Source: Styela clava
Taxonomy: Eukaryota
Length of the DNA: 64,000 nt
Reading direction: 5' to 3'
NCBI RefSeq assembly: GCF_964204865.1
Contig: NC_135251.1
Location: forward strand, 18,352,001-18,416,000
Of the stretch, positions 1-60,717 are shown in pieces (the stretch's first letter is position 1; each line of letters opens with the position of its first letter). Below the pieces are notes generated by a model. That model was not told the origin of the DNA and did not search any database. It saw only the letters and a list, made by a program, of their open reading frames with translations. The translations under genes were made by a program, and so were the position numbers.

Positions 1-1889
1 TTATAGTAGTTCAAGTAGTAGTCTAACCAAGCTGACCAAATTATGAGTCGGTAAAAATTCAGAAATTTCTATAAGACTTTTATACTTTTGTGAGATGATA
101 AATAGGGTATGCCTTTCGTGTCACTTTAAACATGGCAGGAAATATAAAAAATTGTATAAGAATTCGGGCAATTATTTCTTTTTATGTATTTTATAATAGC
201 GTTTTCTGCCCCATTTTTTCATTGGTTGGCGGACATATCCATTAACCAATCAAACCGTGCCTTATGTGACTGTTGCATGAAACATAGGCGTGTTGTGATA
301 ACCGAAAACAGCCATAAACAAGAACAAACAATGATAACAGACACGATGTTTTGTGCCGGAGGATACAATACTACCGTCAATGTCAACTCGCCTCATATTC
401 ACTGTTATGATTAAGATTCACAACTATTGGATGATATGCATAACGAAGTTTAAATATTAAAGAATTCACTATTTTTAATAAATTATGAAAGTACAGACAT
501 GTCATACTTTCAGATTGGAATGCCAATGAATATGAAAAATTACATTTGTATTTGAACAATTATTTTTTATGCATTGATTAATTTGCTTCACTTGACGGAA
601 ACAGTGCGAAAGTCTATACTTTACTAAACCGCTGGATTGATTTCAGCTTTGTTCAACTTTTTTCTACGCATATGGGTCTTGATTAGGGAGAGCTTGCGAG
701 GCTGAAAATAATAACACAGGTCCGTCAATGGTTCAAGATCATAGCAAAAACATGGGGGGTGTAGATTGTTGTGATATGCCGTTATCTTTGTATTGAAATA
801 AAATTGGCTGTGATCAAGCGTAAATAACACCAAATAATTAAAAGGGCATATCATATGCGCATTATGCGCACAAATACATACAGTAAATATGGAAATTCAA
901 TATTCATGTTTTTAAGCAGCACAAGAAATGTATTTGTCGTTGATAAACATCAAAATGAATGGGAAGGTAATGTGCTTGAAGAAAAACGTATGAATTTTGG
1001 ATAGCGTGAATCTAATGGCAAACTCATATTTAGGAATAGGTTTCACAAAAAACGCGCAATAGGATATCTTACGAAGTTTTTCGACATCTTATGTGAACTT
1101 GCTTCGCACTTAGTCTAGAAATATACTCTAATCACAGCTTCTCTCTTTGAGGGGAGAAAGGGTTCTTCAGGAGCAATAAATTATCAGTTTCGGAAAGGAA
1201 AAATTACGATGAATTACCTAAACCATTTTTTTGACCATGACTTGGTAGATTAAAATCACGCCATTTTGACTAATTATTATAAAGTGAACATGGGGAATGT
1301 TTGTTTGGTTACATTGCGATACCCTGATAATAATTGGTGCATAGAAATTTGATGGTCTTTATTTTGGTGACACTACATGTTTCCACTCACATTATCTGTT
1401 GATCACTATACCGATACAAGAGAAGAATTTTGTATGGGTATATCGTTTGAAAATGAAACGCCTTATGTTCTAACTACTAATTAAATTAGTTAGATATTCG
1501 TCTGACTCCAAAACAGAAAGATTAATAGGTTACGTGTTCAGCTGAGATGTCTGTTAATTTGATATAACAGCAAAAAGATCCAAATATTTACCTGTATAGA
1601 TTTTATTTCCTTGATAAATATATTACAATAACTTAAATCAAATAAACCTATTTACAATTCTAAGTTATTATTATTGACGGTTGATTAATAGAGATTATCA
1701 GATTAATTGTACTTGAGATCTCTTTGTTTGTTTGAGATCGCATTTTAAAGTATATCACAATTCAAACAGGCTTTTCTCGATGATTCTAGAGAAATCCATG
1801 TAAAACAGGGGTGATTCATCATATCATATGAGAATTATTCACTCTGCATACAGCTATGTGTCGAAATTTCATATTAGAATGTTCTAGAA

Positions 1890-3170
1890 CATGGGTGGGC
1901 AACCTTTTTCGGCTCGCGTGCCAAAATCGGCTAAACTTAACGACAAAATTCTCCCGCGTGCCGACCAATATTAAAAACTATGCTTTGCTACTGTCAAAGC
2001 AAAAAACTTTTTGAACATGTACAGACAGATCCACTTTTTGGTAAAATATCAGTCCGTAAAGATATTTGATTACTTTTCTAATGCTGCTGCATTACCACTG
2101 ATAGAGATTTTACATTGAATTTATATTTGGTAACTGTCAAAGAAAGAAATACACCAACTACTGGTTTCATCTTTAGGGATACTCCTGTTACGAGACTTAA
2201 TAAGGTTCATAACTGAGAACAGAGATTCACAAGCATATGTAAATAAAAACATACATGAGTAATGCAGTTGCAGACACGAAAAATTTTCGGCGATGGCTTT
2301 CCAATAGCGCAATAGTTGTTTTCTGCACTTCTCTCTTGTATCCCTTTCCATGATCGTTTATAATTTTTCCGAAATCAATTTATAACAGTAAGGTAGCAAG
2401 TAACTCTAACCAACATGAGCTATACTTCATAAATCAGGCAGAAAGAAGAAAAAGGGCGGCACAGACGACATACCGTATTTCCCGGCGAATAAGTCTACCC
2501 TGTAAATAAGACGAGGCCGGTTTTTAAGCCTGAAAACATGGGTTTTTGCATATAACCTACAATAAGTCGGGGTAGTAAAATCGCATCAACATCGGAATCT
2601 CAAACTACCATGCAATGCCTTTTGAGCGGTCGCCGCGTTTGCGCATTGGTTAATATAGCCTATAATGACGTTTTTTGCAAGGTAATATTCAATCCATAAT
2701 AACTACGGGAATTCGAACTGTCTTTAAATTTTAATCTAATTGTGTTCAACTCGTGATTGCGTCCACCATAAAAGAACATTAGCTAAATCATAATAAGGCG
2801 ACACCAAAAAAATGAAAATTACCAGACTCGCCTAATAAGACGATCCCCTCAAAATCAGGCCAAAAATTTGGGTCTAGAAAAGCGACTTTTTCGCCGGGAA
2901 ATACGGTATATTACGTGAAAATTTAGCCAAATAAATGCTGCGCTCTTCCTGACAAGTTTCTCCGGACCTCTCTCTTTTGTTGCGTCATAATTTATTCCTT
3001 TGTAGCTATATGTCATGGAAGGACGGGAAGATTTGAAATAAATAACGGTTTGTCAACGAATCACAAGGAATAAAGAAACACTGAGTTTCATCAGATAATT
3101 CAGATTCTTGAAATTATTTATCTGAAGGTGAAGGATCTTGTTTTCAAGGCCTCGCTCGCGTGCCGAATAA
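1890..3170 (-). mobile_element. Non-autonomous hAT (Charlie/Buster-like) element with one end deleted
   Basis: TIR catgggtgggcaacc follows ttctagaa. Minus-strand hAT C-terminal remnant (TYACESLFSVMNLIKSRNRS). Subterminal cgcgtgcc repeats. Empty site in unit 3. Confidence 0.8.
2473..2906. mobile_element. Tc1/mariner (Tc2-like) MITE nested in the hAT element
   Basis: TIRs ccgtatttcccggcgaa / ttcgccgggaaatacgg flanked by TA on both sides. Confidence 0.9.
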
Positions 3171-6100: not shown

Positions 6101-6235
6101 AACAATCCGTCATCAGTCTTGCATAAACGATATCTTTCTATATTTATGTAAAGTAATTCCGAAAACTCAGCGATATCAACTCACTGAATATAAAATTTCT
6201 ATTTTCTCAATTTGACGAAAATCGTTTCTCGAAGG

Positions 6236-6243
6236 TATAAATA
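6236..6243 (+). promoter_or_regulatory. Candidate TATA box of IL-17 copy 1
   Basis: TATAAATA about 100 bp upstream of the ATG at 6343. Confidence 0.5.
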
Positions 6244-6342
6244 GAATGCAAAAAATGTGTCTGAATTCAAACATCACACTATCAAGAAGAAGTAGTACTC
6301 AATTTGAGGAAATTTCTCAACGTCGATACGCACTATACAAAA

Positions 6343-8452
6343 ATGAAGGTGAAGTAAATTTTTAAGATTTATTCATCTATTCTAGATTATTTGAATATAT
6401 GCACTGTTCCACTATTGTTAATGGTGGATAATTAACGGACGAAAATTTAAAATACAATTTTTTTTTACTTTCAGGCACATCAAGTCAGCGGTGTAATTAT
6501 ACTTGTATTCCTTGCAAATTGTCAAAGATGTTTTTCACGTCGAATTTATGATGCAGAAGCTCAATTTCTATCCAGGTAAGAAAACAAATTAAAATGAGCC
6601 AACTTCGAAAAAATATTGATATGTAATGTATAAATATTTCCTCAATTTTCCAGCGAACATCTAGATGAATCAGCTGATTTCCCAAGCTACAGAGAAATAA
6701 GAAGACAGTCGGTATGTTACAAAATAGATTTTCATAAATGTAATTTGTTGTAGCGATTGTTAAAGTGGTTTTCAAGCTCTATATCAGTGGTTCTCAACCG
6801 GGGGTTCGCGAAGCATTTCCAGGGGGTCCGCGATTAAATTTAGATTTTATGAAATTATTTGCATTTTAATATCGTTTTTATTTGTAATACGCTCGAACAT
6901 TTGCTGCCTATGACAATGTGACAATAGCCTACAAAAACCTCCCGTAGACCTATTGTGACAAATACGAGTTATGACATCACAATGATAAATACGAGAACGC
7001 AGCTACAGTGATTTCAAGGGTATGTAGTCATTGGTCACATTCTCATTTGAAGCGAAGTAGCTAGTTGTTCTACAGCCAACAAAGGAGATCGTGTTGCTTT
7101 CCAAAATTTAACCAGCATGGCTAAATCGAGAAAGTACTCGGAAAGTTATCTTGAAATGGGGTTTACCTCAGTGTCAGAGGGTGGCAAGGAAAAACCGCAA
7201 TGCGTTTTATGCTATGCTGTCCTCAGCAACTTTCTCACAAATCCCTTTCTCAGTTTTGGAGCGCCATTTTGCCGTCGGACCCAAAAGTATCGATGGAAGC
7301 ATTACGTGTTATTGTCCCATTTGCCTCCACTTACCTTTGTAAAAGTGGATTTTCTGCTGTCGTCCATATCAAATGCAAGGCTCGTAACCAACTAAACGTC
7401 GAAGACGATATGCGTCTATCGTTATCGAAAACACGACCACGTATTTCAAGACTTGCTTCTGATATGCAACAGCAGAAATCCCATTAAGTGTTTTCGATTT
7501 TACAAAATAAATGAAAATGTCCACTAGTTTGGTGTTATTATTGACTTGGTTAAATCTGTATGGAACATTAGGTTGCTGTTCAAGCTATAAACTAAGTTTC
7601 AAATAAAAAACATTTGAGAGCACCAGAAGGGTCCGCAAAGACAAAAAGGTTGAGAACCACTGCTCTATATTAACAAATTTTCTCCAAGAATACTAATTGA
7701 CTGCGTAAAACAACCAAGCACTATAGCACGTCAATTGAAGTTAAGGATGCTTAGATAAAAAACATACAGCCCCGGTGCACACAACTACCTACCGTATGTC
7801 ATGTTGTAAGCGGCGCAACGCTTTTCTCTGTGGTCTATGTGGCACCTGTATGTCATATGTAGCATTCCCACTGTTGTTGATTATGCAAAATTAAACCGCT
7901 TTTGAATTATAGGCTGATTGTCCATCAATCATTGACTCGCCAAGACATTGTCCATACGTCAGAGGATACTCTGGAACGAATGATCAAGAAAATCTATCAG
8001 GAAGTAGCATTACTCCTTGGACAACAAGGTAAGTTGATCAGGTTCGATTGATCGTTTTACAAACATAAAATTTGCATTGACTGTTGTTTTAACATTACAA
8101 CGCGGGGTTGCATTATGTTACTTTATTTTGTAGTGGAAATGTAGGACAATTTTGAGAAAATATTTGAACCTTCAATTTTTCATTTTATAAAAGCATTATG
8201 TTTTGATTTGTTTACAGAATTGACATTGATCCTTTACGCTCACCCCAGGCTTTTCCAGTAGTTTGTTGTGCATGCACCCACTGCGTTGACATATCTGGTT
8301 CTGAGCCTAAAATCCTGCGAGAACATTACAGTGAGAAAGTCTACGTAAAAAAGGAAGTGAGAAGAGCAGAGGATGGATTTCGACCTCGTTATATCAAAGT
8401 AGCTGTTGGATGCACCTGTGTTCACAAACCCTTTGGTGGACATCGAATGTAA
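6343..8452 (+). CDS. IL17: IL-17 family cytokine, copy 1 (~179 aa). Exons 6343-6348, 6475-6575, 6654-6711, 7770-7793 (uncertain), 7913-8028, 8218-8452
   Basis: Signal peptide MKAHQVSGVIILVFLANC. Motifs SSITPW, DPLRSP, CCACTHC and VAVGCTCV match the IL-17 cystine-knot pattern. Splice phases are consistent. Confidence 0.88.
6785..7662 (+). mobile_element. Internally deleted hAT (Buster/Charlie) element in IL-17 intron 3
   Basis: TIRs cagtggttctcaacc / ggttgagaaccactg, perfect 8-bp TSD ctctatat. N-terminal RKYSESYLEMGF..KPQCVLC joined to C-terminal PFASTYLCKSGFS dimerization remnant. Confidence 0.95.
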
Positions 8453-8765
8453 CCTGGGACATGAAGTTTAATTTGTCGTTTACTTTTAAAATATGTTTTA
8501 AAATGTTTTGAGAATTTCATCAAATGCTTTAAATACTTTTAGGAAATGTTTTATGTACTACAGCCAACAAAGTAAAGTTTGTCTCGTGTGGCGGTTGAAT
8601 TTTATGAAGCGTGTAAACATTTCATATATTCCACAAAAAAGAATCAATTTCAAGAAAAAGTCTACAATGAATTTATTCAGACAAAGTTATTTATATGTTT
8701 GTTTTTCATATAAAAATCATGTGATTTTTGTTCTACTTTATTGCGAATAGTATTATCATTTAGTT

Positions 8766-8813
8766 CAGTGGTTTTCAGCCTTAGGCTCGCTGAACCCCGG
8801 TTGAAAGCCACTG
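8766..8813. mobile_element. 48-bp minimal hAT MITE
   Basis: cagtggttttcagcc...ggttgaaagccactg, TSD atttagtt/atttagtg. A longer version occurs at 24915. Confidence 0.8.
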
Positions 8814-13039: not shown

Positions 13040-13354
13040 TATAGCATATATAATTGGTAGATAAATGTGATGTTACCGTATATTGCTAATTTGTAGATTG
13101 TCTCTGACTTGTAAGTCACCCGTTCACCCTTCAGCTTCAACGCCCACGTGAATGAAGATGCGTTAAAAATCTCTATATGTTTTTATTTGTAAATTTCCAC
13201 AACACACAGAATACAAATCTTATAACATTTATCCAGACTAGCTTAGAATGGTTTACATCGTCTTCCTCACATCGTCCTCCTTCGAAATATATCGGAGTCG
13301 TATTTATACGTCGATCGTACATCTAATTAAATACTGTAAACGTGAGCTCCGTGA
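13040..13354 (-). repeat. Inverted, diverged LTR-like segment (TATA, poly(A) signal and U5-like end on the minus strand)
   Basis: Reverse complement has TATAAATA, then ttgtattctgtgtgttgtggaaatttacaAATAAA, then caatctacaaa, ending ctata. The LTR at 17281-18008 has ttgtatttctgtatatattgtcggaattgcAATAAA, caatctacaaa and ctata in the same order. Confidence 0.65.
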
Positions 13355-15061
13355 TTTTTCTCAAAATCGTTAAACCCAGCCCAACGGAAATATTCTACTT
13401 TTGATCGGGAACTACTGGCTGCTTATCTGAGTGTCAAACATTTTCGATATGATTTGGAAGGACGTTCGTTTTTCATCCTCTCTGACCATAAACCATTGAC
13501 GTATGCCCTACACAAAAGTGCTGAAAGATCATCTCCACGACAAGTTCGTCATCTCGATTTTATAAGTCAATACACAAATGACATGAGATATATTGCTGGA
13601 AGCAGTAATGTGGTAGCCGATGCTTTGTCTAGAGCGACAATTGCCGCATTCTCACACTTGCCTACAACTCTAACCTTGTCTGACATCGCTTTGGAACAAC
13701 GTAAGGATCCGGACATTCAAAACCTGTACAATGAACCTAAAAGCATGGAATTACGATTTGTGAAACTTAGTGACGATTTACATCTACTATGCGATTCAAA
13801 ACTATCAACACTACGCCCAGTTATTCCGAAGAAATTTCGAAAACGTATATTCGATACGAATCATCAATTAAGTCACCCTGGAATTCGAGCAACTCAAGAT
13901 CTTATTCAAGCAAGATATATTTGGCCAAACATGAACATTGACATCAGGAAAATGTGCCGAGCGTGTATTCCATGCCAATCATGTAAAATTCAAAGGCACA
14001 CGATCTCACCTTTGCAAACTATCGTAACTCCAGACGAAAGATTCTACCATATCAACATTGACATTGCTGGACCTTTACCACCATCTAACCGATATAATTA
14101 TATACTTCTCGTTGTGGACAAATTTTCGAGATGGGTGGAAGCTATTCCTATCAAAGACATAACATCTGAAACGGTAGTTAAAACATTTTTTCTGTTCTGG
14201 ATTTCTAAATATGGCGTACCTGCAATCATCACCAGTGACCGTGGAGGTTGCTTTCAAAGTGTTCTATGGCAAGAAGCAATGCAATTTCTCGGTTCTCAAC
14301 ACATTTCAACTACTAGCTATCACCCAGCCTCAAACGCAGCTGTTGAAAGACAAATACGACAATTAAAAGCATCTCTGATGACTCACTGCCGGAATACTGC
14401 AGATTGGTATCAAAACTTGGGTTTAGTTCTACTTGGCATGCGAACTGCCATTAAACAGGACTTAGGATACAGTAGCGCCGAACTACTTTATGGAACACCA
14501 TTGAAATTGCCTGGAGAATTTTTCTCGACCAACCAACCGGGTATCAACACTAACCCTCAGGCGTTTATGAAACGCTTGAGCAATTTCATCAATAAGTTGA
14601 AACCAATCCAACCGAAAACACCTCTAAATAGAAAGACATTCTTATCACCAGAATTGAATACTTGCAGTCACATCTTTCTACGTGTTGACGCAGTTAGAAG
14701 ACCACTGGTACCACCTTATCAAGGACCTTTTCGTGTTATACAAAAATACGACAAGTTTTTTAAGATTGATTTTAAAGGCAAACCTACCACTGTTTCTATT
14801 GATAGAGTTAAGCCGGCTCATGAAGAAATTTTCACTCCCGATACTCAAGACATTTCTAATTCAAATACCCCAACTACTGAATCTGACGTACTAATACACA
14901 GATATAACGTACGAATATCAACCGATATTGACGACTCTTTACTTATTACGCAGAACGAGGAAACTAATAGCAATCAACAAGGTTTAGGATCAATACAATC
15001 AAGGACTCGACACGGAAGGACAACTAGACCGCCACAGAGAGACGATTATGTTTACTATTAA
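13355..15061 (+). CDS. pol: Truncated pol: RNase H C-terminal part plus complete integrase (first ATG at 13583)
   Basis: FFSK..YSTFDRELLA..SDHKPL..NVVADALSR. HHCC zinc finger, D,D(35)E (IDIAG, SDRG, VER) and GPY/F (PPYQGPF) motifs. Motif style resembles the CsRn1/Kabuki clade. The frame is closed upstream by TGA at 13352. Confidence 0.95.
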   Translation, partial: FFSKSLNPAQRKYSTFDRELLAAYLSVKHFRYDLEGRSFFILSDHKPLTYALHKSAERSSPRQVRHLDFISQYTNDMRYIAGSSNVVADALSRATIAAFSHLPTTLTLSDIALEQRKDPDIQNLYNEPKSMELRFVKLSDDLHLLCDSKLSTLRPVIPKKFRKRIFDTNHQLSHPGIRATQDLIQARYIWPNMNIDIRKMCRACIPCQSCKIQRHTISPLQTIVTPDERFYHINIDIAGPLPPSNRYNYILLVVDKFSRWVEAIPIKDITSETVVKTFFLFWISKYGVPAIITSDRGGCFQSVLWQEAMQFLGSQHISTTSYHPASNAAVERQIRQLKASLMTHCRNTADWYQNLGLVLLGMRTAIKQDLGYSSAELLYGTPLKLPGEFFSTNQPGINTNPQAFMKRLSNFINKLKPIQPKTPLNRKTFLSPELNTCSHIFLRVDAVRRPLVPPYQGPFRVIQKYDKFFKIDFKGKPTTVSIDRVKPAHEEIFTPDTQDISNSNTPTTESDVLIHRYNVRISTDIDDSLLITQNEETNSNQQGLGSIQSRTRHGRTTRPPQRDDYVYY

Positions 15062-16994
15062 GTGCCTCGCAATCTGTATGTATCTTTTTGTTTATTCGTC
15101 TAGTCTGCCATTTAAATCTGCTTTACCAACTCCAACAGTTACAGTAAACCTATGCCACCCCAATAGACCCAAAGCTGAATACTTTATTCAGAAGCCCAAT
15201 AATTGTACTAAGGAGACACCCCAAACCATTAAGCAATGCTCTGTTACGGTACATGAATTATCTTCTAGCTATACAAATATTACTTTATATGTATGTCAGA
15301 AATCTGCTACTAAATGGTCTAGTCATTATTTTTTCTTTGGTGCACATTCGAGTAAACTGACTTCTACCATGATAGAACCACCCACCCCTTTATATTGTGA
15401 AGATTGGGTACACACGTTAAAAGCTGATAATATTGGAGATTTAGAACCCACTTCCCCAGATACTTGGTCCACTCAAAACAAGGCAAAAGTTACTTATAGT
15501 TGGCCATCCTCTAGACACGGACAAGTGATCAATGCTCATTTGTCTCGTATTCAAATTTCGTATGATCCTTTTCATGGGGTAATGTTAGGTGCTTTCCCTT
15601 CAATTTCCACCTGCAACATATTAACTGGGTCATGCACGTTAGGAAGTCAAACTTTAATTTGGAAACACCACCCTTTAATTGATTGCCCTCAATACCAAAC
15701 AACTGTTACTGAAACTATTTTACATTATAATTCTTCTAATCAGATTTACCGCTTAGATTTTCCAAAACTTGGGCAATCAATCCATAACTGGGGTTCATGT
15801 GGCAAGTCAGTTAAAAGATGTTTTAAGTCTGATACTCTTTGTACCAATAATGGTTTGTTATTCGAAACGCAACAATGCATTGCACTTGATGGTTCATCCC
15901 TTTTTACTCTTAAATATCCCGCCTTTAATTACGATTATACTGTAAAGAATTTTTCAGAATCTTCTCCTCTAATTGGGTTTTTTCAAGAAAGCACTGATAG
16001 GGTTTCCGAGGTAATAAACAAATTGACAGCAGATATTAATTATTTGGAATGCCAAATTGAAAGCATTCTAACCACTAATATTAAACTCCTGTCTAAACAA
16101 TACCCCGGTAAGATCCTAAGTCAGTTACTAGGTGGGAACAGAGCAGCTATCACCGTGGGTGATATATTGACCGAAATTGAATGCCAACGTATTAACGTTA
16201 CCGTTCTTAGGAACCTCTTTTCACATGGTAAATATGCTACCCGACCTTTAGTGCACTTTATTAATAATAGCAATGAAACGATCATTGCACAAATATTCCC
16301 TGATTCTAACGCTTATGTGGGTATTCATTTTTTTGAAAATTATACGCCTGGTCGTATATTTACGTTTCAAATTGACGGTCGGTTCTATAACTACGTCAAT
16401 TATACTTTAAATCATGCGGATATGCATGTAAAATTTCTGAGACCCACATTCAAGCCTTTTGTCGACAATTTTAATCCTATCGATTACAATGAAGCATATA
16501 ACGAATTACCAAGGGGACACCAGGGTTATGATGATATTAATAATATGTTATTATCAATCAGCCACATTAACCTTATTCGAGAACGAATATTAAGTGAGCA
16601 AACCCTAACTAATGCAGATAGCACATCAGACACTGATACTGATGCTATCTCACATGAAGTGCAAGACACTTTTGTTCATGCCCTCTCCTTCATTAAGACT
16701 TCAATTTTATCAGGTATTTATATGCTCTTATTCCATTTATCTCTCATTTGGGCCACTATTTGGACCGTTTGTTTTATCAAGAAACTTTGCCCAAAACTGA
16801 GAGATGAAGGACTTCCTAGAATACAACGGCTTCGGCAATACTTGGCTGCTCGCAGGGAACAAGTGAACCCTGTTGAACCACCTCAACCTCTTGTGCAAAA
16901 CAATAGACAAGATCAGGGGGGTCAAATCTATCAATCTAGATCAAATCCCAATAATAGATCAAATTCGAACTTATACCCTAGTCTGGCAGACTAG
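15048..16994 (+). CDS. env: Envelope glycoprotein, class III viral fusogen-like (648 aa)
   Basis: Signal peptide, Cys-rich ectodomain, N-glycosylation sequons and C-terminal transmembrane helix. LSKQYPGKILSQLLG..AITVGDIL..EC and YATRPLVHF..FQIDGRFYNYVNY resemble herpesvirus gB domains III/IV. Confidence 0.85.
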   Translation: MFTIKCLAICMYLFVYSSSLPFKSALPTPTVTVNLCHPNRPKAEYFIQKPNNCTKETPQTIKQCSVTVHELSSSYTNITLYVCQKSATKWSSHYFFFGAHSSKLTSTMIEPPTPLYCEDWVHTLKADNIGDLEPTSPDTWSTQNKAKVTYSWPSSRHGQVINAHLSRIQISYDPFHGVMLGAFPSISTCNILTGSCTLGSQTLIWKHHPLIDCPQYQTTVTETILHYNSSNQIYRLDFPKLGQSIHNWGSCGKSVKRCFKSDTLCTNNGLLFETQQCIALDGSSLFTLKYPAFNYDYTVKNFSESSPLIGFFQESTDRVSEVINKLTADINYLECQIESILTTNIKLLSKQYPGKILSQLLGGNRAAITVGDILTEIECQRINVTVLRNLFSHGKYATRPLVHFINNSNETIIAQIFPDSNAYVGIHFFENYTPGRIFTFQIDGRFYNYVNYTLNHADMHVKFLRPTFKPFVDNFNPIDYNEAYNELPRGHQGYDDINNMLLSISHINLIRERILSEQTLTNADSTSDTDTDAISHEVQDTFVHALSFIKTSILSGIYMLLFHLSLIWATIWTVCFIKKLCPKLRDEGLPRIQRLRQYLAARREQVNPVEPPQPLVQNNRQDQGGQIYQSRSNPNNRSNSNLYPSLAD

Positions 16995-17270
16995 TCGAAT
17001 AGCAATGCTCATATTGTACATATATATTATACTTTAACATGATTTCTTTCTAACATGTGTTTTACGAAGAATTAAATACTTCGTGCATTTACATCAATAC
17101 CTATAACAATAATATACCTCATGTATAACTATCTCAGGAATAACTATATTTAATCTACCTTTATACAGCTTAAAATTTATTTTTTATTTTTAGTTGAATT
17201 TCATGAAAACAGCACGTCATTTCCGCCTTCTCAGCCCAAATTGCATCATTAGAATTCTCCGAACTCCTGC

Positions 17271-18008
17271 GGGGGAGTTATGTAGCCAATTAGTTGTTAT
17301 GTAACTACAAAACTACACCAAATTGGCCCAATTCGTGAGAAACTCATGAAAACCAAAATTAATTATTCCCGTTATAGCAATTATCAATTTCTCAAAATCC
17401 AATTTCAAGATTTAATAGCATTTCGGTGCCATCCCATGTAAAAATAAAATTTATTTCCAGTAATATTCCAATAACGTAAATTCGAAATATCTTGTTAAAA
17501 CCAAATTATCCACTTGAGAACAATTTTTTACATCTCATAATTGGAGTAAGTACGTGACCAGGAACACGGTGACTTGGCAATAACATGTTAATTGCTAGTA
17601 ATGAACTTCAAGAAAACACTTTTAATAATGTTTGATTATAGTGAACCGAAAGCTAACCAGAAACCGGAATGACGCGTGATTCTTTAATCGTTAATGTAAA
17701 AATCTGTTTCTTTATTCTATTTTAATTGCTTGGTAGAAAGCTATATATTCAGCAACGTGTTTTGTTTTAATCAGACTAGATTTGATCAAATTGTGTGTAC
17801 ATTGTATTTCTGTATATATTGTCGGAATTGCAATAAACTCATAAGGTGTTTTCAAACGTCTCCTTACTACAGCCGAAGGCTATCGACAGATAGACAGTTC
17901 GAGTTAACGAACGCAAGACAAAACTATTGTCAGTCAATGCTGGGGTTATAACACATAAACCAGACCAATCTACAAACAATCTATGTGTAGTGATAACTAA
18001 TCACTATA
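17271..18008 (+). repeat. Polypurine tract (17271-17277) and 3' LTR (17281-18008)
   Basis: gggggag, then tta, then TGTAG start. Internal TATA-like tatata and AATAAA. Ends ctata at the TSD. Confidence 0.8.
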
Positions 18009-21835: not shown

Positions 21836-24600
21836 ATGAAGGTGAAGTAAATTTTTAAGATTTATTCATCTATTCTAGATTATTTGAATATATGCACTGT
21901 TCCACTATTGTTAATGGTGGATAATTCACGGACGAAAATTTAAAATACAATTTTTTTTTACTTTCAGGCACATCAAGTCAGCGGTGTAATTATACTTGTA
22001 TTCCTTGCAAATTGTCAAAGATGTTTTTCACGTCGAATTTATGATGCAGAAGCTCAATTTCTATCCAGGTAAGAAAAACAAATTAAAATGAGCCAACTTC
22101 GAAAAAATATTGATATGTAAGAAATGTATAAATATTTCCTCAATTTCCAGCGAACATCTAGATGAATCAGCTGATTTCCCAAGCTACAGAGAAATAAAAA
22201 GACAGTCGGTATGTTACAAAATAGATTTTCATAAATGTAATTTGTTGTAGCGATTGTTAAGGTGGTTTTCAAGCTCTATATCAGTGGTTCTCAACCGGGG
22301 GTTCGCGAAGCATTTCCAGGGGGTCCGCGATTAAATTTAGATTTTATGAAATTATTTGCATTTTAATATCGTTTTTATTTGTAATACGCTCGAACATTTG
22401 CTGCCTATGACAATGGGACAATAGCCTACAAAAACTATTTTGATTTACCTCCCGTAGACCTATTGTGACAAATACGAGTTATGACATCACAATGATAAAT
22501 ACGAGAACGCAGCTACAGTGATTTCAAGGGTATGTAGTCATTGGTCACATTCTCATTTGAAGCGAAGTAGCTAGTTGTTCTACAGCCAACAAAGGAGATC
22601 GTGTTGCTTTCCAAAATTTAACCAGCATGGCTAAATCGAGAAAGTACTCGGAAAGTTATCTTGAAATGGGGTTTACCTCAGTGTCAGAGGGTGGCAAGGA
22701 AAAACCGCAATGCGTTTTATGCTATGCTGTCCTCAGCAACTTTCTCAAAAATCCCTTTCTCAGTTTTGGAGCGCCATTTTGCCGTCGGACCCAAAAGTAT
22801 CGATGGAAGCATTACGTGTTATTGTCCCATTTGCCTCCACTTACCTTTGTAAAAGTGGATTTTCTGCTCTCGTCCATATCAAATGCAAGGCTCGTAGCCA
22901 ACTAAACGTCGAAGACGATATGCGTCTATCGTTATCGAAAACACGACCACGTATTTCAAGACTTGCTTCTGATATGCAACAGCAGAAATCCCATTAAGTG
23001 TTTTCGATTTTACAAAATAAATGAAAATGTCCACTAGTTTGGTGTTATTATTGACTTGGTTAAATCTGTATGGAACATTAGGTTGCTGTTCAAGCTATAA
23101 ACTAAATTTCAAATAAAAAACATTTGAGAGCACCAGAAGGGTCCGCAAAGACAAAAAGGTTGAGAACCACTGCTCTATATTAACAAATTTTCTCCAAGAA
23201 TACTAATTGACTGCGTAAAACAACCAAGCACTATAGCACGTCAATTGAAGTTAAGGATGCTTGGATAAAAAACATACAGCCCCGGTGCACACAACTACCT
23301 ACCGTATGTCATGTTGTAAGCGGCGCAACGCTTTTCTCTGTGGTCTATGTGGCACCTGTATGTCATATGTAGCATTCCCACTGTTGTTGATTATGCAAAA
23401 TTAAACCGCTTTTGAATTATAGGCTGACCCAAAAGTATCGATGGAAGCATTACGTGTTATTGTCCCATTTGCCTCCACTTACCTTTGTAAAAGTGGATTT
23501 TCTGCTCTCGTCCATATCAAATGCAAGGCTCGTAGCCAACTAAACGTCGAAGACGATATGCGTCTATCGTTATCGAAAACACGACCACGTATTTCAAGAC
23601 TTGCTTCTGATATGCAACAGCAGAAATCCCATTAAGTGTTTTCGATTTTACAAAATAAATGAAAATGTCCACTAGTTTGGTGTTATTATTGACTTGGTTA
23701 AATCTGTATGGAACATTAGGTTGCTGTTCAAGCTATAAACTAAATTTCAAATAAAAAACATTTGAGAGCACCAGAAGGGTCCGCAAAGACAAAAAGGTTG
23801 AGAACCACTGCTCTATATTAACAAATTTTCTCCAAGAATACTAATTGACTGCGTAAAACAACCAAGCACTATAGCACGTCAATTGAAGTTAAGGATGCTT
23901 GGATAAAAAACATACAGCCCCGGTGCACACAACTACCTACCGTATGTCATGTTGTAAGCGGCGCAACGCTTTTCTCTGTGGTCTATGTGGCACCTGTATG
24001 TCATATGTAGCATTCCCACTGTTGTTGATTATGCAAAATTAAACCGCTTTTGAATTATAGGCTGATTGTCCATCAATCATTGACTCGCCAAGACATTGTC
24101 CATACGTCAGAGGATACTCTGGAACGAATGATCAAGAAAATCTATCAGGAAGTAGCATTACTCCTTGGACAACAAGGTAAGTTGATCAGGTTCGATTGAT
24201 CGTTTTACAAACATAAAATTTGCATTGACTGTTGTTTTAACATTACAACGCGGGGTTGCATTATGTTACTTTATTTTGTAGTGGAAATGTAGGACAATTT
24301 TGAGAAAATATTTGAACCTTCAATTTTTCATTTTATAAAAGCATTATGTTTTGATTTGTTTACAGAATTGACATGGATCCTTTACGCTCACCCCAGGCTT
24401 TTCCAGTAGTGTGTTGTGCATGCACCCACTGCGTTGACATGTCTGGTTCCGAGCCTAAAATCCTGCGAGAACATTACAGTGAGAAAGTCTACGTAAAAAA
24501 GGAAGTGAGAAGAGCGGAGGATGGATTTCGACCTCGCTATATCAAAGTAGCTGTTGGATGCACCTGTGTTCACAAACCCTTTGGTGGACATCGAATGTAA
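21836..24600 (+). CDS. IL17: IL-17 family cytokine, copy 2. Exons 21836-21841, 21968-22068, 22151-22208, 23280-23303 and/or 23918-23941, 24061-24176, 24366-24600
   Basis: Same structure as copy 1. ORF track 24373..24600 shows CCACTHC and VAVGCTCV. Confidence 0.88.
22282..23172 (+). mobile_element. Unit-2 copy of the intronic hAT element
   Basis: Same TIRs and TSD ctctatat as 6785..7662. Confidence 0.95.
22790..24065 (+). repeat. 638-bp direct tandem duplication (22790-23427 / 23428-24065)
   Basis: Junction aggctga|cccaaaag with 2-bp microhomology GA. The two copies look identical. Confidence 0.92.
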
Positions 24601-24914
24601 CCTGAAACATGAAGTTTAATTTGTCGTTTACTTTTAAAATATGTTTTAAAATATTTTGAGAATTTCATCAAATGCTTTAAATACTTTTAGGAAATGTTTT
24701 ATGTACTACAGCCCAACGAAGTAAAGTTTGTCTCGTGTGGCGGTTGATTTTTATGAAGCGTGTAAATATTTTATATATTCTACGAAAAGGAATCGATTTC
24801 AAGGAAAAGTCTACACTGAATTTATTCACACAAAGTTATTTATATGTTCGTTTTTCATATAAAAATCATGTGAATTTTGTTCTACTTTATTGTGAATAGT
24901 ATTATTATTTAGTG

Positions 24915-24996
24915 CAGTGGTTTTCAGCCCTTTTGGTGGAGCAAAACCCCAATGAAACATTCCAGAGGCTCGCTGATCCCCGGTTGAAAGCCACTG
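24915..24996. mobile_element. 82-bp hAT MITE
   Basis: cagtggttttcagcc...ggttgaaagccactg with perfect TSD atttagtg. Confidence 0.85.
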
Positions 24997-25532
24997 ATTT
25001 AGTGTGTATTTAAGCTATTATTTATCAATACATATATTTTTTTCTGCGTTTAATCATTGACTATTTTACCAAACGAGTGTTATAATAAATAATGTAAGTG
25101 TGTTAAAATATGTTAATCTCAGAGTTTTTGAAAATGTCGAAATGTTTTGCGATAAAATTAATATGAAGGAAACACTTAGAATGTGTCAAAATGTACCCAT
25201 TATTTGGCTCTTTGCGAGATTTTGAAACAAAATTAAAGGCAAATAAAGAAGAATCTTCTATTTCTTCATCAGTTTGGACTATTTATTATATTTGGATGTT
25301 CGATTTATAATGGTTTCTATATCACAGCTGTTCACATAACCAGTATTAACGTTTATACCGCTAATCGTTCGTTACAGATCACAAAAGAAACAAGACGTTT
25401 ATGTTTGTCAAATAAAATAGGAAAGAATATTTTGTATCGTAATAGCAATCTTTCAATAGTATAATTGAAGTGTAATAAAATTACGTGAAGTGTAAATACT
25501 TATAAACTTTGATTAGCAGTGATTGCGATCAT

Positions 25533-35500: not shown

Positions 35501-35980
35501 TGGCCTCGATGTGAGCTTTTTTAAGCAAGTACGACAGGCAATTCCTAAACATTTGCATTGAGTTGAAGAAAAACATCCATTTTGAATTTAATGCACGCAA
35601 AGCAAAACTTTTTAACGTTATAAATAGTTTCTGATAATGGTCAACATTCTACAGAACACGAAGGCGCACTGAGGCTTGTGGACGGACGTAACAATAAAGA
35701 GGGTAGAGTGGAAATCTTCCATGCGGGAAAATGGGGAACAATATGCGATAGAGAATTCGAGATTGACGAGGCAAATGCTGTTTGTTATACTTTGGGATTT
35801 AGTGGAGCAAAGTTTGCTTTAGGACAGGCACATTTTGGATCTGGAGCTGGACCTATATGGATTGCTTTCGAGCATACCTGCAGCGATGAAAACACGGATT
35901 TTTATCATTGCCATGGAACTTTTGGTAAACAAACATATCTTTGCGATCACGAAGACGACGCGTCAGTAGTATGCAATTAA
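32508..35980 (+). CDS. Secreted coiled-coil + single group A SRCR protein (~297 aa). Exons 32508-32787, 33044-33127, 34082-34165, 34423-34485, 34866-34922, 35655-35980
   Basis: Signal peptide. Phase-1 exons of 84/84/63 nt encoding heptad-like sequence. LRLVDG..EGRVEIFH.GKWGTICD SRCR domain with 6 Cys. Confidence 0.88.
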
Positions 35981-39107: not shown

Positions 39108-41026
39108 GTCTAGAGTCTAGTAGACCGTGGATCGTGGTTAGGAAAACACCGTGTTAATATATATACTCCATGATTATAACAGTGTCATAGATTGCATAGC
39201 GGATATGACACCACTTATGTAAACTAATTAGTGTAACACATTTATGAATGCGCTTGCCATTTGTATCGCATATTAGAACTTCATAATAGATTCTCAATGT
39301 GTTTAGAAATTTTACCTATAACATCGAATTGGATGAACGTATGAAATGAGTCAAATCATATGACTGATGTTAAAATTTTATTAGGCTTCTGTTACACATA
39401 TTGTCTACAAATACATATGGTATTTATTCGACTTTGAATAGGAAATTATTGTTAAACTTATTCTATGAATATGTCAAGTAAGCGCTACCTCGCAACATTC
39501 GGAACAACGATAACATACGTTCAGTTGCTGTTACGCCCGAGTTGCCAGACACAATGGCTAAACGAATCACTTCCTCTGCCCTGCGCGCGGTCAGCTGTGA
39601 GAGGCAAATTTTATTACATTCATTCACCTGTAGTTGCGTACAGATAAAATGCCAGTCACATATACCTAGCATAAATGAGGTGAGTGAAGTGAACGATGAA
39701 ATGAAATGTAGTAGCATTGTAAACATACTTTGCAGTTTACTGTTGGGCGATATTGTTAAAAGTTCGACCAAAGAAGGTATTGGGCTATGTTTGTGGAAGT
39801 TGGAAGTTTGATATTTAAAATATCTCATCGGTATTCAATTCAACCAACTTTTTTTGTAATATTGACACAATATTATAGGCGGAACTTTCACAAATATTTG
39901 ATGCTGTGAAAGCATAATATTTCCATTGTACTCAAACAAATGTAGCGAGACGATTACTTTTAAAGAATGAGACAGAAAGGATAAGTCTAATATTGAATAT
40001 TTAATTGACTAGCCTAGTTCGTAAATATAAATATCACATGAAAAAGTTTCTGCCTGTATCAGTGTTAATCAGTCAGTTTTTGCGTGATTGGACTTCAAAG
40101 GCATGTAATAGAGAGTATTTATCAGTAGGGTACGGTTGGAGGAAAATTCCTACAAGCTATAAATATTGTACTATTCAAATTCATGAAAGTAATACAACTT
40201 GAATACTGCAACACATATACATTTGTTATATTCATAATATAAAATGTAGAAGTTCTGTAATTCCTTGACACCATTGTCGAATTACCAATCTACACCAGGT
40301 AAAGCTTATAGCAAGGGTGTATATCATCGTGTTATAGTTAGCTTGTCGCCGCAGATAAAAGCAAAGTTCTTTTTTTAATGCGTAAGCTTAAAATGGCACA
40401 TGGCGGATGTCCAAAGAATGACTAAGACCTGTGATTTATCTCTTGTTTAAGTACCTCGACACAACGGCCAGTGCATAGATAGATTGCATCAAAGATTAGA
40501 ATGATAGAAACAGACACCATCAATACTATATGCAATGACTTGCAGGATAAACCTTACTGAAAGGCGAGTTCAATCGTTCACCGATATTGTAATCATAATC
40601 GAGAAAATTGCATTGGATTATTTACTCTTTCTGCGCATTCCAGAGATTACCTTTTCCGGAAAACAACAATTATATTGAATTACCCCATTTTTTTCTGTAT
40701 TTCAATCATGTTGGGATTTTCGTTAGAACCACGCCAGGAGTTTGTGAATGCCAATGTTGATCCATCGGAAAATGTTTTTTTCTCAACACCTAAATAATTT
40801 ATTTCACCTAATTCTCAGCCGCCTAAATTGTGAACCATCCATAACAATAGCATAAGATTATTATAAGTGTCCGACACTGTTCTCAAGTATTACAAAATTG
40901 AAAAGAATGACATATTACAAAATATTCGCTTATATGCGTAGCACGCGTATGACTAATCCAAATCTGATATCCGATGCATTGAGTATGTTATTTGTATCAT
41001 TTAGATGTAGAAGTCAACCACGCAAG

Positions 41027-44000
41027 ATGAATATAACCTACTTGATTTTCGTCTTCGTCTTGCCAATATTGGTATTTACAGCAATTGTAGTTGGAATGAC
41101 AATTTCTGAAAGACAGGAGGCGGAAAAACCTGAAATTGTTGTCGCAGAAGGTAAGTGAATGATATAGGATTATATTCGAATGGTGTTTTTATTGAATCTG
41201 CACTTTTGATCAAATTTGTCTAATTTATGGAATGTTAATTGTCCAGGGAAACAGGGTATCATTGTTGGTTTAGCAAGCCCTGAAGCTGGCATATTCCAAG
41301 GTATCCCTTTCAGTCATCCACCGACTGGTCAATTCCGATGGAAGAAACCACAACCATTGACAACATTTTCAAAAGATATATGGAATGCGACATATGTTCG
41401 ACCTGGTTGTCCACAAACATGCACTTACAAAAGCAAGAAATATACGTGTCCAGACGAAGTGAGTTAATAAAATATTTATGTTCTCTGCTCAATGCTGTAA
41501 CTAGGCTATGGTAGACTGATTTGTTTTTCTCAAAATAATATATAGGAATTAAAAAATATTTTTAGAATATATTCAAGATTGTTTTGTTTATTTTGAATTT
41601 CAATATAGTATGTACAGAATAACAAAATAATTTAATCGTCAGTTACACCTAGAAAGTTTTTAAATTGTTTTGTGTTCAACTTTTTTCAGACAAACGAAGA
41701 TTGCCTTTATTTAAACGTTTGGGTGCCGCAAAAAATACTAGAAGTTGTTGCTACGAGTGATCTACATCTTGGGAAACATTATACAATTCCTGACAAATAC
41801 CAGAAAGTTGACGAAGAATCTTTAGCTGTGATGGTCTATTTACACGGTGGAAATTTCATGACTGGTGCTGGATCAGCTAGATTATACGATGGCAGATTTA
41901 TTGCAGATCAAGGGAACGTTATAGTTGTATCCACAAATTTCAGGTTGGTGTGTCATAATTTACAAATAAAATATTGTTGAAATTGCCGAAAAAGTTCTTC
42001 CACAAGCATATTACATTTCTCAAATAATCGCGCGTTTATTTTTCAGTCTTGCAGAAGTCATAAATTCATGGACAACTATTTAAAATAGCAGAAGTCAATT
42101 TCCTTTCATTCTTCAAGTTTACTCTATTGATATTAATCCTGTTTAAAATGTAATCTTCCAGATTGGGGGCGTTGGGATTTTTGGTTCAAGGTGACGGTGA
42201 AGATGCCGCGCTAGGAAACTATGGAATATGGGATCAAATTGCTGCTTTAAAATGGATTCAAGAGAATATCAAGTTCTTTGGTGGAAATCCAAAAAAGGTA
42301 AATCTTTATATTTATCCTCACAACAGACGAGCCTACATTTACCTTCGGCCACCTTTTTCTTATTTTATTTCAAAATTATTTTACTAATTATTTCTTAATA
42401 AAATGGCGTTTTTATTACGAAGAGATCACCTATTTTGAATGAACGAATGATATAGCATGATATAATGAATTTAATTGACAATGTCGAATTTTGAATTTAT
42501 AAATTCTTGACATTATATTATCTCTGTATTTTAAAGAATTAAAATAATAAATCAAAACACAAGGTGTTAATGCCCTTGAATACCACAGATCACATTGTTT
42601 GGGCAAAGTTCTGGAGCCGAATCTGTTGCAGTATTGATGACGTCACCGGACGCAAAAGACTTATTCCATCGAGCAATCATGTCAAGCAATCCGATGTCGG
42701 TTCCATTGCGTGATGTTGCAAACGCCAGGCAATATGGTGCAAAATTTGCTGAAGCACTTGGATGTTTACCAGATAACATGACATGCATTAGATCAGCGTG
42801 AGATGTTTTACTTTATAAAACATGCAATTAACTTACATCTTTTAGCCAATCGATGTACTGATAAATAAGCAAATTACCCGCTCACCAATTGCATAAAATA
42901 ACTGTATATCCAAATGTCAGTGGAAAAAAATGTATACTTAACCAAATCATTTTCGTGCTAAGGTACTTCCTAGTAAAATGCCACATATGTATCATATTAT
43001 ATCAATATTAACTTATTTTTAAAGGGCCATTCGTTGTTGATAGTGGTTTGTGTGTACATTCAATCGCAATGTTCAGACAGTTGCTTGCTCGATTATATAC
43101 TCTGAATAAACTAAAGTGTTTTTTTATAGAGACACAAGCGAGATCATCGAGGCCTCACAAGTACAAGGATGTTCGTTATTCGGAGGTGGTAGAAAACTGT
43201 TAGCTCTTCAACCATGGGGCCCAGTTATTGATGGAAAATTCTTAATGGAATCTCCCCTGGAAGCATTCAAGAATGTAAATTAATATCATAGCTAATGAGT
43301 TGATTTTTGTCTCGGATGATTAGGAGAAGAACATTGCAATCTACAATACGAATAATTACTAATGTTATTGTCAACAAATTTCATATATTTGCAAACATTT
43401 TTAAGAGCGAAACAGAAGTAGAAAAACGTTATAGATGGGAACAGTATTATAATGATGTTAAATTATGTTGGATTTAAAATCTTCAACAAAATATACTTGT
43501 ATACTTGAGTTTTAATTGTAAATTTTAGAAAAGAACGATGAAAATACCAGTAATTATTGGAGGAACAGTGGATGAGGGAATGTTTTTCGTTCCAGAAGTT
43601 TTCAAAACACCAGTTGCAAATTTTATTTATCAATTTACTATTGGAACAGTAATGCCATCTGCTACATCTCAAGTACTCAAGGAGTATCCTGCGGTAAGTA
43701 TAGTCTGATCTTAGTCTCACCAACTTTGCGATTTTAACTTAATAATATATCTTATTCTATTCTGCAATATATACACTTTACGATGTATTTTGGGGTTTGT
43801 ACCCTATCAATAGATATAGATATTGTTGGACACGAAGTGTATCTACGGATCGTTTTTTTGTTATTATGCTGTTGTTAGTATTCTTATTTGTGTTGTTATC
43901 ATTGGTGTGAAAAACGCTTTTCACTTTAAATACTGGACGAAATTCTTTGGCATTTTCAACAGTTAGATTTTGTTGTTATCGCTAGACGGCTATATTTCAA

Positions 44001-45907
44001 AGATTTATATGGGCTCAATGAGAATCGTTTTTCACGTTAAAGTTTTTTTTTTATGACGCAATTAAATTTAAAAAATGTGCTCCGTGTGGCGGTTCCGCGA
44101 TCACATTTGAACAATCTGGTTGTCAAGCCGGGAGTGTTTTACAAATGTACAGATAATGTAAAAAACGTGATACAGGTACTTCTTCGTTTTGAGCATTGTT
44201 ATCTTGTTTTTTATTACGTATCAAATTCATTAAACAATATTACTATTTTACCTTGCAGTGCAGCGAGCAATCATGCGACAACCGGTTTGCAATCGGAAAA
44301 ATAATCACTGATTATGCATTCCTTTGTCCAGAAAGAGCAACACTATTTCATACCAGATATGATTCTTGGTTTTACATATTTAACGAATCACTACCTATTC
44401 ACGTGAGTAAACTTATTCTCAGTGTGCGTTTATGACGTCTTAGGCACATTTGCCGATCGACGCATGACGCGTTTCCGAAATGAATCTTTTTCGACATCTG
44501 ACACGAAAGTAATAGACCCAGGCCGACATATATAAAGAATGAATGCGACCGTATTATGATTCATATACTCATATAAGTCAGCCCTTTACTTAGATACATA
44601 GCAAAATTGGCTCTAACCTAATATATTAAACAAAAAGGTTTATGATTTTCTTTTTCCATTTTTTCGTAGTTTCACATTCTTCATTAAAAACGAATTCTGC
44701 TAATTTTTCTATTTATCATAGAATCCGACCATATTTACTGACTTATTTTTTTTTATTAAACCAGTGGTTCCCAACCTTCTTCGATGATTCCCTCTTTAGC
44801 CTACTTTGGATCTTATTATTTCTTCCTCACTATGCATAAAAATATGTTTTCATTATTTATTCGAGCTTCAAGGATTTATTACTACTGTTCCGCGCAGATC
44901 GCACTCTAGCATTTAAATAATATGAATAGTTCATGACGTGCCCATAAGTATGTATAAATAATGCTAAATAACTAAATAGTCAAACTTATTATTCAATTTT
45001 AGTCAAACGGCTGTATTTCCTTCCCCCCAAAAAACTAATTTCTCTTCAATTGGGAAACGCTGGATTAGGCCCCCATTAATACAGTAGCCACGATTCAATA
45101 AGATTCGAAAGGAATTTTACCCATTTGTTAGCAATATATTTTTTCATCATTCATGTGTCATATTCTGTCTTCTTAATAATATCTTTTGTCAGGAACTCTG
45201 GGAAACCGATTTTTGTTTCGACAGAGTTTGCCATTGCGCGGACCTGCCTTTTATTTTTAACACTGTTGGTCTGTCAGATTACAAATTTGATAATAAGGAA
45301 CAAATGTTAGCAAAAAGGATAGTCTACTTCTGGACAAATTTTGCTAAATATGGCAATCCGAATGGCGAGGTATTTATTTTTTTACAATAATTATATATTA
45401 GTGAATATTTTCAGGGCTTTTTACTTTTTCCATATTGAATGTTATTATAGTTGGAGTTTGAAAACAAAAATAATTATCAGATTCTTGAAATATGGAAAAA
45501 TTTCAATGTGATTCATAAAATTAGCATTGATATATGGTTAATATTAATTACGGGAAATTAGATTAATTGACGTCGTATACAAATATTCATGTATATATGA
45601 TTATGATCCATACCACAACTATCGATAGCGCACAGGTTTATGGCAGAAGTCATATATTGAAGTATTATTCTCAATGAATTCCAAACTTTTACTTTGAAAG
45701 GGAGAATTCCAAAATACCTCTGGGCAACGGGAAGAAGGAACATATGGCGAGTACAGCGCCGCCTACTGGCCACGTTTTACAGAGCAAAGCTTCGGTGCAT
45801 ATTCAGCTATTGAACTCAAATCTGACGGTGATAAGATTCTTTCTGATCCATATCAGAAGACTTGCATGTTCTGGGACGAATTGGATTCTTATGGGACGTT
45901 TAGATGA
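41027..45907 (+). CDS. Type-B carboxylesterase / cholinesterase-family protein (~590 aa). Exons 41027-41150, 41247-41458, 41690-41943, 42162-42297, 42589-42797, 43130-43274, 43529-43693, 44259-44402, 45193-45369, 45701-45907
   Basis: [30 protein letters not shown] and [11 protein letters not shown] motifs. Catalytic triad present: GQSSG (Ser), DEG (Glu), VCHCADL (His). Phases are consistent. Confidence 0.93.
43823..44110 (+). repeat. Intronic copy of the dispersed repeat at 28826
   Basis: ttggacacgaagtg...aaacgcttttc...tactggacgaaattctttggcattttca. Confidence 0.55.
44762..45062. mobile_element. Old hAT MITE in a carboxylesterase intron
   Basis: cagtggttcccaa...ttgggaaacgctg; the TSD is degraded. 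Confidence 0.55.
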
Positions 45908-59900: not shown

Positions 59901-60717
59901 CAATTTCACTGGAACATCGTATATTAGAGCACCGATATTTACAATATAATTAGTCCCAATAACAAGCTTTCATGCAATACAAAATTTATTTAAATACTCA
60001 TTGTGGTTCTTGAGATACGAGATCTTAAAGTTGATTCCTTCCGACACGAAAAACAAGCCGGTAAACCGGCTTGCCGGGGCACAGAGCGTACTCAAACAAG
60101 CCGGTAAACCGGCTTGCCGGGTTCAAGAGGTTAAAAATATAATTCCTTCGGAATGAAATTATTTTCCAAACTCTTTGGAAACGATGAAAAGATTTGCTGC
60201 TGCATTATAAACGTTTTTCGCTAAATCATATGTATGCTGATCCATGTCTTCGCACATAAATTTCACGAGTGCCTTTATCTGTGTATTACGTTAGTTTTCA
60301 TTTGATATTGAATGGTGATTTAAAATTAAAGTTAGTCTTATAAAATAAAATGATATTTATGTTTGAGTGATGAATCCATTGTTCGCAATGCATATTTTTG
60401 GTCACAAATGCAAACCACAATTTCCACCCATCGCTAACAGTAAACATGTCATAAAAGGGAGTATTTTGAAATATTCCTCCTTCTCTTTTAGAGACATACA
60501 GCCTGATGATTTTGGAGAAATCAGTGTCAGTTACACATATTTCGAGGAAAACGCTACCGACAAAATAAACCTAGATTACCAAAGTAGAATCATCTTGTCT
60601 GGATACATGTACACTGTTATTGTATTATCTATTGTAGTTGGTATATTACTTGTTATTTTACTCTTCATCATGTTTAGAAGGATTGTTAAACGGGCATCAC
60701 CAGAACCATATTACTAG
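47942..60717 (+). CDS. IL-1 receptor-like protein with 3 Ig domains, a transmembrane helix and a 13-aa tail, no TIR (~420 aa). Exons 47942-47947 (tentative), 48046-48088, 51632-51771, 51955-52092, 52654-52798, 53215-53345, 53435-53540, 54144-54286, 57045-57127, 57780-57881, 60492-60717
   Basis: Signal SGLLFFIVLSTIG. NATCYYSVMKLNV, VTWYLNC, GIYSCKITY and KIGESVKISC resemble IL-1R family ectodomains. Transmembrane segment then RRIVKRASPEPYY*. Phases are consistent. Confidence 0.75.
48376..49722 (+). mobile_element. Nested non-autonomous hAT (SPIN/Buster-like)
   Basis: TIRs caggggtcaccaac / gttggtgacccctg. Remnants FHDEWE and RLTDENLQDSLRV. Imperfect TSD (tatagc core). Confidence 0.85.
49016..49296 (-). 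mobile_element. tRNA-derived SINE nested in the hAT element
   Basis: Minus strand has A-box-like tggcccatcgtg and B-box-like ggttagaatcc, followed by a unique body. Confidence 0.65.
50965..51495. mobile_element. hAT MITE (531 bp)
   Basis: TIRs caggggtcgggaacc / ggttcccgacccctg, perfect TSD ccctaagt. Confidence 0.93.
54452..54535. repeat. Foldback mini-element with 31-bp arms (30/31 match)
   Basis: tattcgtaccaagatgacgcacatcctgaac ... gttcaggttgtgcgtcatcttggtacgaata. Confidence 0.8.
56600..56838 (+). repeat. Two direct copies of a relative of the same foldback family
   Basis: aggttatg.ttcaggttgtgcgtcattatgatgcacaggtttgac..aaaacactaatacaaatatc occurs twice, about 170 bp apart. Confidence 0.75.
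58157..60130 (+). mobile_element. Non-autonomous piggyBac derivative (1974 bp)
   Basis: TTAA on both sides. Imperfect TIRs ctctttgaac / gttcaagagg. C-terminal Cys-rich remnant RCVVC..KTVYKCKYCNEYLCIG..WH near 59095-59260. Confidence 0.85.

Follow-up and report, generated by a model that had tools for sequence, protein, structure and literature searches.

The locus considered here raises the question of whether a splice acceptor that has been copied to a position directly before a transposon remnant, inside one of three tandem IL-17 genes of Styela clava, marks the birth of a host-transposon fusion gene, acts as a trap for transcripts, or is an error of assembly. The window, by which we mean the whole stretch of DNA analyzed (G000:C2:18352001-18416000), is 64,000 nucleotides long, and positions refer to its forward strand unless a contig is named. 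The explanation that we favor, by a modest degree, is that an exact 638-bp duplication, likely young and rare, has put a copied acceptor before a dead hAT fragment and would form a leaky gene trap rather than a working fusion.

The host gene encodes an IL-17 cystine-knot domain (PF06083, 44.4 bits against a cut-off of 24, E 2.2e-11). The affected gene (copy 2) and its unduplicated paralog in the window (copy 1) are laid out as follows, the acceptors at 23423 and 24061 being called proximal and distal, respectively.

21836..21841, plus strand: coding part of exon 1 of copy 2 (ATG AAG); the spliced model equals the public protein P0026 with 0 differences, and the matching copy 1 intron is joined in runs X5 and X7
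21968..22068, plus strand: exon 2, with a hydrophobic signal-like stretch recognized by hydropathy only
22151..22208, plus strand: exon 3, whose donor at 22209 could pair with either acceptor
24061..24176, plus strand: true exon 4, beginning at the distal acceptor, as seen in spliced contigs
24366..24600, plus strand: exon 5, with the cystine-knot domain PF06083 and the stop
23280..23303 (second copy 23918-23941), plus strand: 24-nt piece previously taken for exon 4; intronic, skipped in every spliced contig seen
6343..8452, plus strand: paralog copy 1, the same gene with the same hAT element, without the duplication

Splicing was assessed on copy 1 (6150-8750), for which eight of 18 runs were compared (X18, X1, X4, X5, X7, X10, X11 and X12). 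Five of these are RNA-like and three are DNA; the RNA nature of a run is a guess from the data, by which nine of the 18 are RNA-like. All four introns of copy 1 were joined at GT..AG in X5 and X7, and intron 3 was joined in all five RNA-like runs, which come from three studies. In each of these five contig sets exon 3 was connected directly to the exon at 7913, the equivalent of 24061 in copy 2, and the record coordinates of X5 and X7 leave zero letters between the two exons, without room for 24 nt. The first-pass annotation had placed a 24-nt exon 4 in this interval and had suggested that the duplication doubled it. Because the piece is skipped in 5/5 contig sets, has a purine-rich acceptor (7/20 pyrimidines versus 11-15 in real acceptors), and lacks in the upstream paralog the 9 nt that form its donor, it is intronic, and the proposed exon and its doubling have to be abandoned. 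Protein lengths agree: the three spliced models match P0024, P0025 and P0026, 171 aa each, with no differences (these public models are not independent of this assembly), and among the seven members of the Styela clava IL-17A-like cluster (P0023-P0029) six have 171 aa, one has 151 aa, and none has the length expected of an 8-aa insert. The sole homolog match of the host gene was a protein named as Styela clava (99% identical). Copy 2 thus has five coding exons and 171 aa, and the exon at 24061 is exon 4 rather than exon 5 as previously numbered. The RNA junction diagnostic for use of the proximal acceptor is accordingly 22208->23423, and the junction 23303->23423 put forward earlier was wrong.

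The three IL-17 copies form a tandem array: copies 1 and 2 occupy 6343-8452 and 21836-24600, respectively, and the third precedes the window. The 377-Mb genome as a whole contains 32 IL-17 domain matches. Units of the array are spaced ~10.5 kb apart (window 1-28700 plus G000:C2:18348000-18352000). Copy 1 is a hybrid: its 5' part is within ~1% of copy 2 and its 3' flank within ~0.5% of the upstream copy, with the switch located in exon 5 or the 3' UTR. Such a pattern fits unequal crossing-over.

Intron 3 of copies 1 and 2 contains a transposon insertion that is not found in the upstream copy; run X4 holds both states, as indicated by an empty-site joint. In copy 2 it consists of the following parts.

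22274..22281, no strand: left target-site duplication, 8 bp, CTCTATAT; found once in the upstream paralog, where the site is empty
22282..23172, plus strand: non-autonomous Buster-type hAT element, 891 bp, inserted into intron 3 in the orientation of the gene, with 15-bp terminal inverted repeats
23173..23180, no strand: right target-site duplication, 8 bp, CTCTATAT

The target preference of Buster elements is TA-centred. Their terminal inverted repeats measure 14-16 bp according to the accessible part of PMC12637253, which compares with 15 bp, plus an 8-bp target duplication, in this case. Of a 589-aa transposase the element keeps approximately residues 1-38 and, in another frame, 507-589 (the last 83 codons). 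Its nearest full-length relative found was P0002, a ZBED5-like protein of 589 aa from Clavelina lepadiformis, with 80% identity at 507-589, 67% at 1-43, and 85% over the tail discussed below. An alignment-based model of P0002 matched Hermes (E 3e-9; pLDDT 77, with residues 542-557 below 50); the single-sequence model was unusable (pLDDT 35). The family of this element is abundant, with at least 152 protein matches at all similarity levels. No autonomous parent above 85% identity was present among 21 loci compared, and the three long hAT frames examined were 37-46% identical to P0002. A 107-nt go-back joint, the mark of an internal tandem duplication in this hAT family, was supported by five raw reads of X18 and one X1 contig. 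Judged by its sequence, the element is a non-autonomous Buster-type deletion derivative with nothing unusual about it besides its doubled right end. Among other copies of the family, L023, L024, L025 and L029 contain arrays of the 107-bp internal repeat. Open Buster-like transposase frames belonging to other families were also encountered at L020, L021 and L022 (595, 600 and 549 aa, respectively); L020 and L021 are nearly identical, such that their family may be young, and L022 is followed ~512 bp downstream by a repeat of its own 3' end.

The doubled right end results from a head-to-tail duplication revealed by comparison of the sequence with itself.

22790..23427, no strand: unit A of the duplication, 638 bp; comprises the 3' part of the hAT element, the remaining intron 3 and the first 5 nt of exon 4
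23428..24065, no strand: duplication unit B, identical to unit A; carries the second right end of the element, with its terminal inverted repeat at 23796-23810

Units A and B match with 0 mismatches over 638 bp, bearing out the earlier impression that the copies are identical. The exact run extends to 640 nt (22788-23427 = 23426-24065), which for a 638-bp unit implies that the breakpoint lies 3-5 nt inside the exon at a 2-nt microhomology (GA); the annotated position just inside the exon (5 nt) falls within this range. A microhomology of 2 nt is within chance. Since the units do not differ (0/638) while copy 1 differs from unit A by four substitutions over 638 bp, the duplication postdates the split of copies 1 and 2 and, if real, is very young. 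Exact tandem duplications are ordinary in this assembly: two exact two-copy cases, this one included, were found in 694 kb sampled, among nine near-exact tandem repeats of period 100-3000. The second exact case has a period of 328 bp and lies at G000:C2:18330104-18330748. The DNA junction pattern matched once in its own genome, only the window's own place matched among 91 loci, and metagenome contigs, in which the host genome is not expected, gave no match.

The copied acceptor and the sequence behind it are as follows.

23423..23635, plus strand: duplicated proximal acceptor and 70-codon frame, Ala followed by transposase residues 521-589; predicted trap exon
23654..23659, plus strand: AATAAA in the 3' end of the element, with a GT/T-rich stretch behind it; AATAAA also occurs at 23016

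The proximal acceptor (tatag followed by GCTGA) equals the true acceptor at 24061 over the upstream 25 nt. The two sites are 638 nt apart, share an identical intronic context, and diverge from the sixth exonic base. The frame 23423-23635 runs open to its stop and keeps the phase of exon 3, so that the first-pass annotation was correct in joining the acceptor in frame to the hAT tail with a stop at 23635, as it was in placing AATAAA at 23654. This signal is also present in copy 1, inside an intron that is normally spliced. Splicing from 22208 to 23423 predicts a chimera of 125 aa (exons 1-3 plus 23423-23635), of which 57 derive from IL-17; it would lack the cystine knot and all eight cysteines that follow the leader. 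The figure of 133 aa given previously is a correct count for the exon model used at the time and does not hold for the true one. An in-frame outcome is not rare by chance: 83/885 start points in the element (9%) give the same tail and 159/885 give a tail of ≥50 aa. Selection need not be invoked to explain the layout.

The fused tail itself falls short of an intact domain. The 70-aa frame had no Pfam match at E<=10, and its earlier designation as a hAT dimerization domain is only loosely right. PF05699 is weak even in relatives (1/8 above the cut-off). Residues 509-560 of P0002 align to positions 19-70 of this profile, which places the start of the fused fragment near position 31 of 84, after the FW helix and without the beginning of PF05699. 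At sites conserved in 21 relatives, the invariant Y521 is D in our element and the nearly invariant E542, presumably the third catalytic residue of the transposase, is K. The notion that these changes are private to this copy was rejected, as D together with K or R occurs in 4/15 loci, a dead subfamily. In Hermes, the region corresponding to the tail is described in the accessible part of PMC4763223 as not being an independent folding unit. Two alignments were searched against the sequences of solved structures, with no relevant match. A folded, dimerising or cytokine-like product would be unlikely.

Whether the trap exists at all depends on the duplication being real. We consider it probable that it is a young or private structural variant; an assembly artefact, i.e. 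an uncollapsed overlap in a heterozygous, repeat-rich three-copy array that would leave neither trap nor fusion, is the less probable reading and still a substantial possibility. In reads placed on copy 1, the duplication would appear as a go-back joint from 7917 to 7280, with a threshold of three raw reads or one contig. No such joint was among those listed for any of the eight runs, including the DNA sets X18 (raw reads, read at ~6%, local depth ~4), X1 and X4, as an artefact would predict, and contigs of X1 and X4, which cannot show absence, cross the breakpoint position unbroken. However, none of these runs is established as the source animal of the assembly: the proportion of words shared with the assembly reached 0.65 at best. 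Position 8028 points the same way: A is found in X1, in 2/2 X18 reads and in the upstream paralog, and G in copies 1 and 2. An overlap left in the assembly would likewise yield two units without a single difference; haplotype mis-joins also produce the pattern seen here, a near-identical segmental array with a hybrid copy 1, and the species is ~1.72% heterozygous according to the part of PMC7540406 available to us. On the other hand, the assembly has no N gap at the site, and the hAT family does make real internal duplications. In X1, which derives from an unrelated sample (S1), the 5' and 3' variants stand in 2:1 depth ratios, which weakly fit a real three-copy array, depth being no copy number. 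A contig of the same run at 7638-7876, inside the duplicated unit, has a depth of 55.6 versus 14-19 per variant elsewhere; this is a weak hint of an extra unit, confounded by GC content (0.41 versus 0.26-0.37) and by repeated words where the contig begins.

Given a real duplication, the balance tips slightly toward use of the proximal acceptor. The duplication could instead be silent, with the proximal site ignored because the transposon provides no exon definition, and normal IL-17 made after removal of a longer intron. This possibility falls within the real-variant reading and takes part of that reading's probability; we regard it as rather unlikely. No contig joining exon 3 to the element was found among the five RNA-like runs, with the provisos that contigs drop rare forms and that the carrier status of the samples is not established; the four RNA-like runs whose contigs cross the last junction have A at 8028 and may represent a different haplotype. 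An X5 contig with two differences runs through the AATAAA in the copy 1 intron and may be pre-mRNA or DNA. In favor of silence, the same AATAAA and 6-of-9 donors in the copy 1 intron were passed over in 5/5 spliced contig sets, but copy 1 is no test case because it has no true acceptor upstream of the element. Similarly, the distal acceptor is the one used in the public model of copy 2 (P0026), but that model was not derived independently of this assembly, and the RNA behind it cannot be traced to a carrier. The classic experiments with duplicated splice sites are reportedly those of Reed and Maniatis. As far as the accessible part of PMC2095810 goes, the choice among competing 3' sites is governed by the sequence that separates them, and exonic sequence in that position can repress the intron-proximal site. 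Set against such repression, the proximal acceptor has its full intronic context and is transcribed first. A gene-trap effect is a reasonable prediction from this anatomy.

The hAT element in intron 3 is normally spliced out with the intron. According to the leaky-trap explanation, the duplication would have arisen by a replication or repair slip at the 2-nt microhomology, and not by transposition, because neither break lies at an element end. The exon 3 donor would then pair with either acceptor. Use of the distal site would give the normal 171-aa IL-17, and use of the proximal site would give a transcript with the stop at 23635 that may end at the AATAAA and encode the 125-aa chimera, probably with an unfolded tail. 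Alternatively, the proximal transcript might splice on from a donor at 23878, 23942, 23996 or 24177. A stop far upstream of a junction makes a transcript a target of nonsense-mediated decay by established rules, and with the stop 243-361 nt or more upstream of the later junction these products would likely be degraded. Either way the output of copy 2 would fall, buffered by its two intact neighbors; the redundancy follows from the three tandem 171-aa copies and the genome-wide IL-17 complement.

A nascent functional host-transposase fusion, as raised by the first-pass annotation, would instead be a secreted 125-aa protein made of the IL-17 leader and a transposase tail with a role, for example as a decoy. 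The in-frame join, the native acceptor, the stop and the polyadenylation signal are all in place for it. The same layout yields a real fusion in CSB-PGBD3, the piggyBac exon trap in intron 5 of human CSB: as described in the accessible part of PMC2268245, a same-sense intronic DNA transposon, preceded by an acceptor and followed by AATAAA, serves as an alternative last exon in frame with the host exons, and the normal product is kept. Unlike in that case (PMC2268245, as far as accessible), the acceptor at the present locus is the host's own, duplicated one, only 69 decayed residues are contributed, use is predicted, and the allele is found in one assembly. In addition, no fusion transcript was seen among the contigs of the five RNA-like runs, and there is no sign of fixation or conservation, the junction having one match in its own genome and none listed in the three DNA sets. 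The tail amounts to 69/589 residues mutated at conserved sites, loss of the eight cysteines makes pairing with IL-17 unlikely, and the frame has 9% odds of arising by chance. We therefore do not retain the fusion-isoform proposal and regard a functional product as extremely improbable. Somewhat less remote, and in our view still improbable, is a segregating allele at the birth of a host-transposon fusion, in which the duplication hands the host acceptor to an intronic frame and carriers make chimera mRNA and less copy 2 IL-17. In the available part of a survey of host-transposase fusions (bioRxiv 10.1101/2020.05.07.082677), transposases are captured via splicing and hAT elements supply 23.4% of cases; a fusion model had to contain a transposase Pfam domain and to have every intron supported by RNA, and the 81 that were tested showed purifying selection. 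In comparison, the present locus has no Pfam domain, no RNA support in five runs, and no orthologue for dN/dS, and it falls short of a host-transposase fusion gene under those published criteria, so far as the accessible text gives them. No paper on the locus was recognized by title or abstract start among the matches listed for Styela clava and IL-17, a set with incomplete coverage.

As it stands, the arrangement is of little consequence: a single structural variant, or an error of assembly, affecting one member of a three-gene IL-17 tandem. Rather than a new gene it is likely either an ordinary young variant or such an error, and at most it would waste transcripts from one of three near-identical copies. 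If a carrier does use the new acceptor, the locus would offer a natural test of how the spliceosome chooses between identical 3' sites 638 nt apart, and an instance of transposon exonisation by duplication of a host acceptor, though still no new system or functional cytokine.

Several other features of the array and its surroundings were observed. Two joints that read GT..AG on the minus strand (6687-7792 and 7971-8243) make it likely that the IL-17 gene is overlapped by a spliced transcript in antisense; both come from X10, one of the five RNA-like runs, and one has a clear pyrimidine tract. A tiny hAT-like element with CAGTG..CACTG ends lies in the 3' flank (~24914-24997 and 8766-8813) and differs in length between copies. 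Between the two genes, a 5-kb LTR-retroelement occupies 13041-18005, with a 5-bp target duplication, and is absent from the paralogous unit. It contains an RNase H and integrase frame (13355-15061) and an env-like frame of 668 codons (14988-16994), the latter matching glycoprotein B weakly and below the cut-off (E 3e-5); a terminal stretch 90% similar to its own lies upstream of it in inverted orientation. Further neighbors within 35624-35980, 41000-45400 and 54122-60717 include an SRCR domain exon and a carboxylesterase gene, both identified by Pfam, as well as receptor-like frames with no Pfam match in which an Ig-like part and a transmembrane stretch were discerned by eye.
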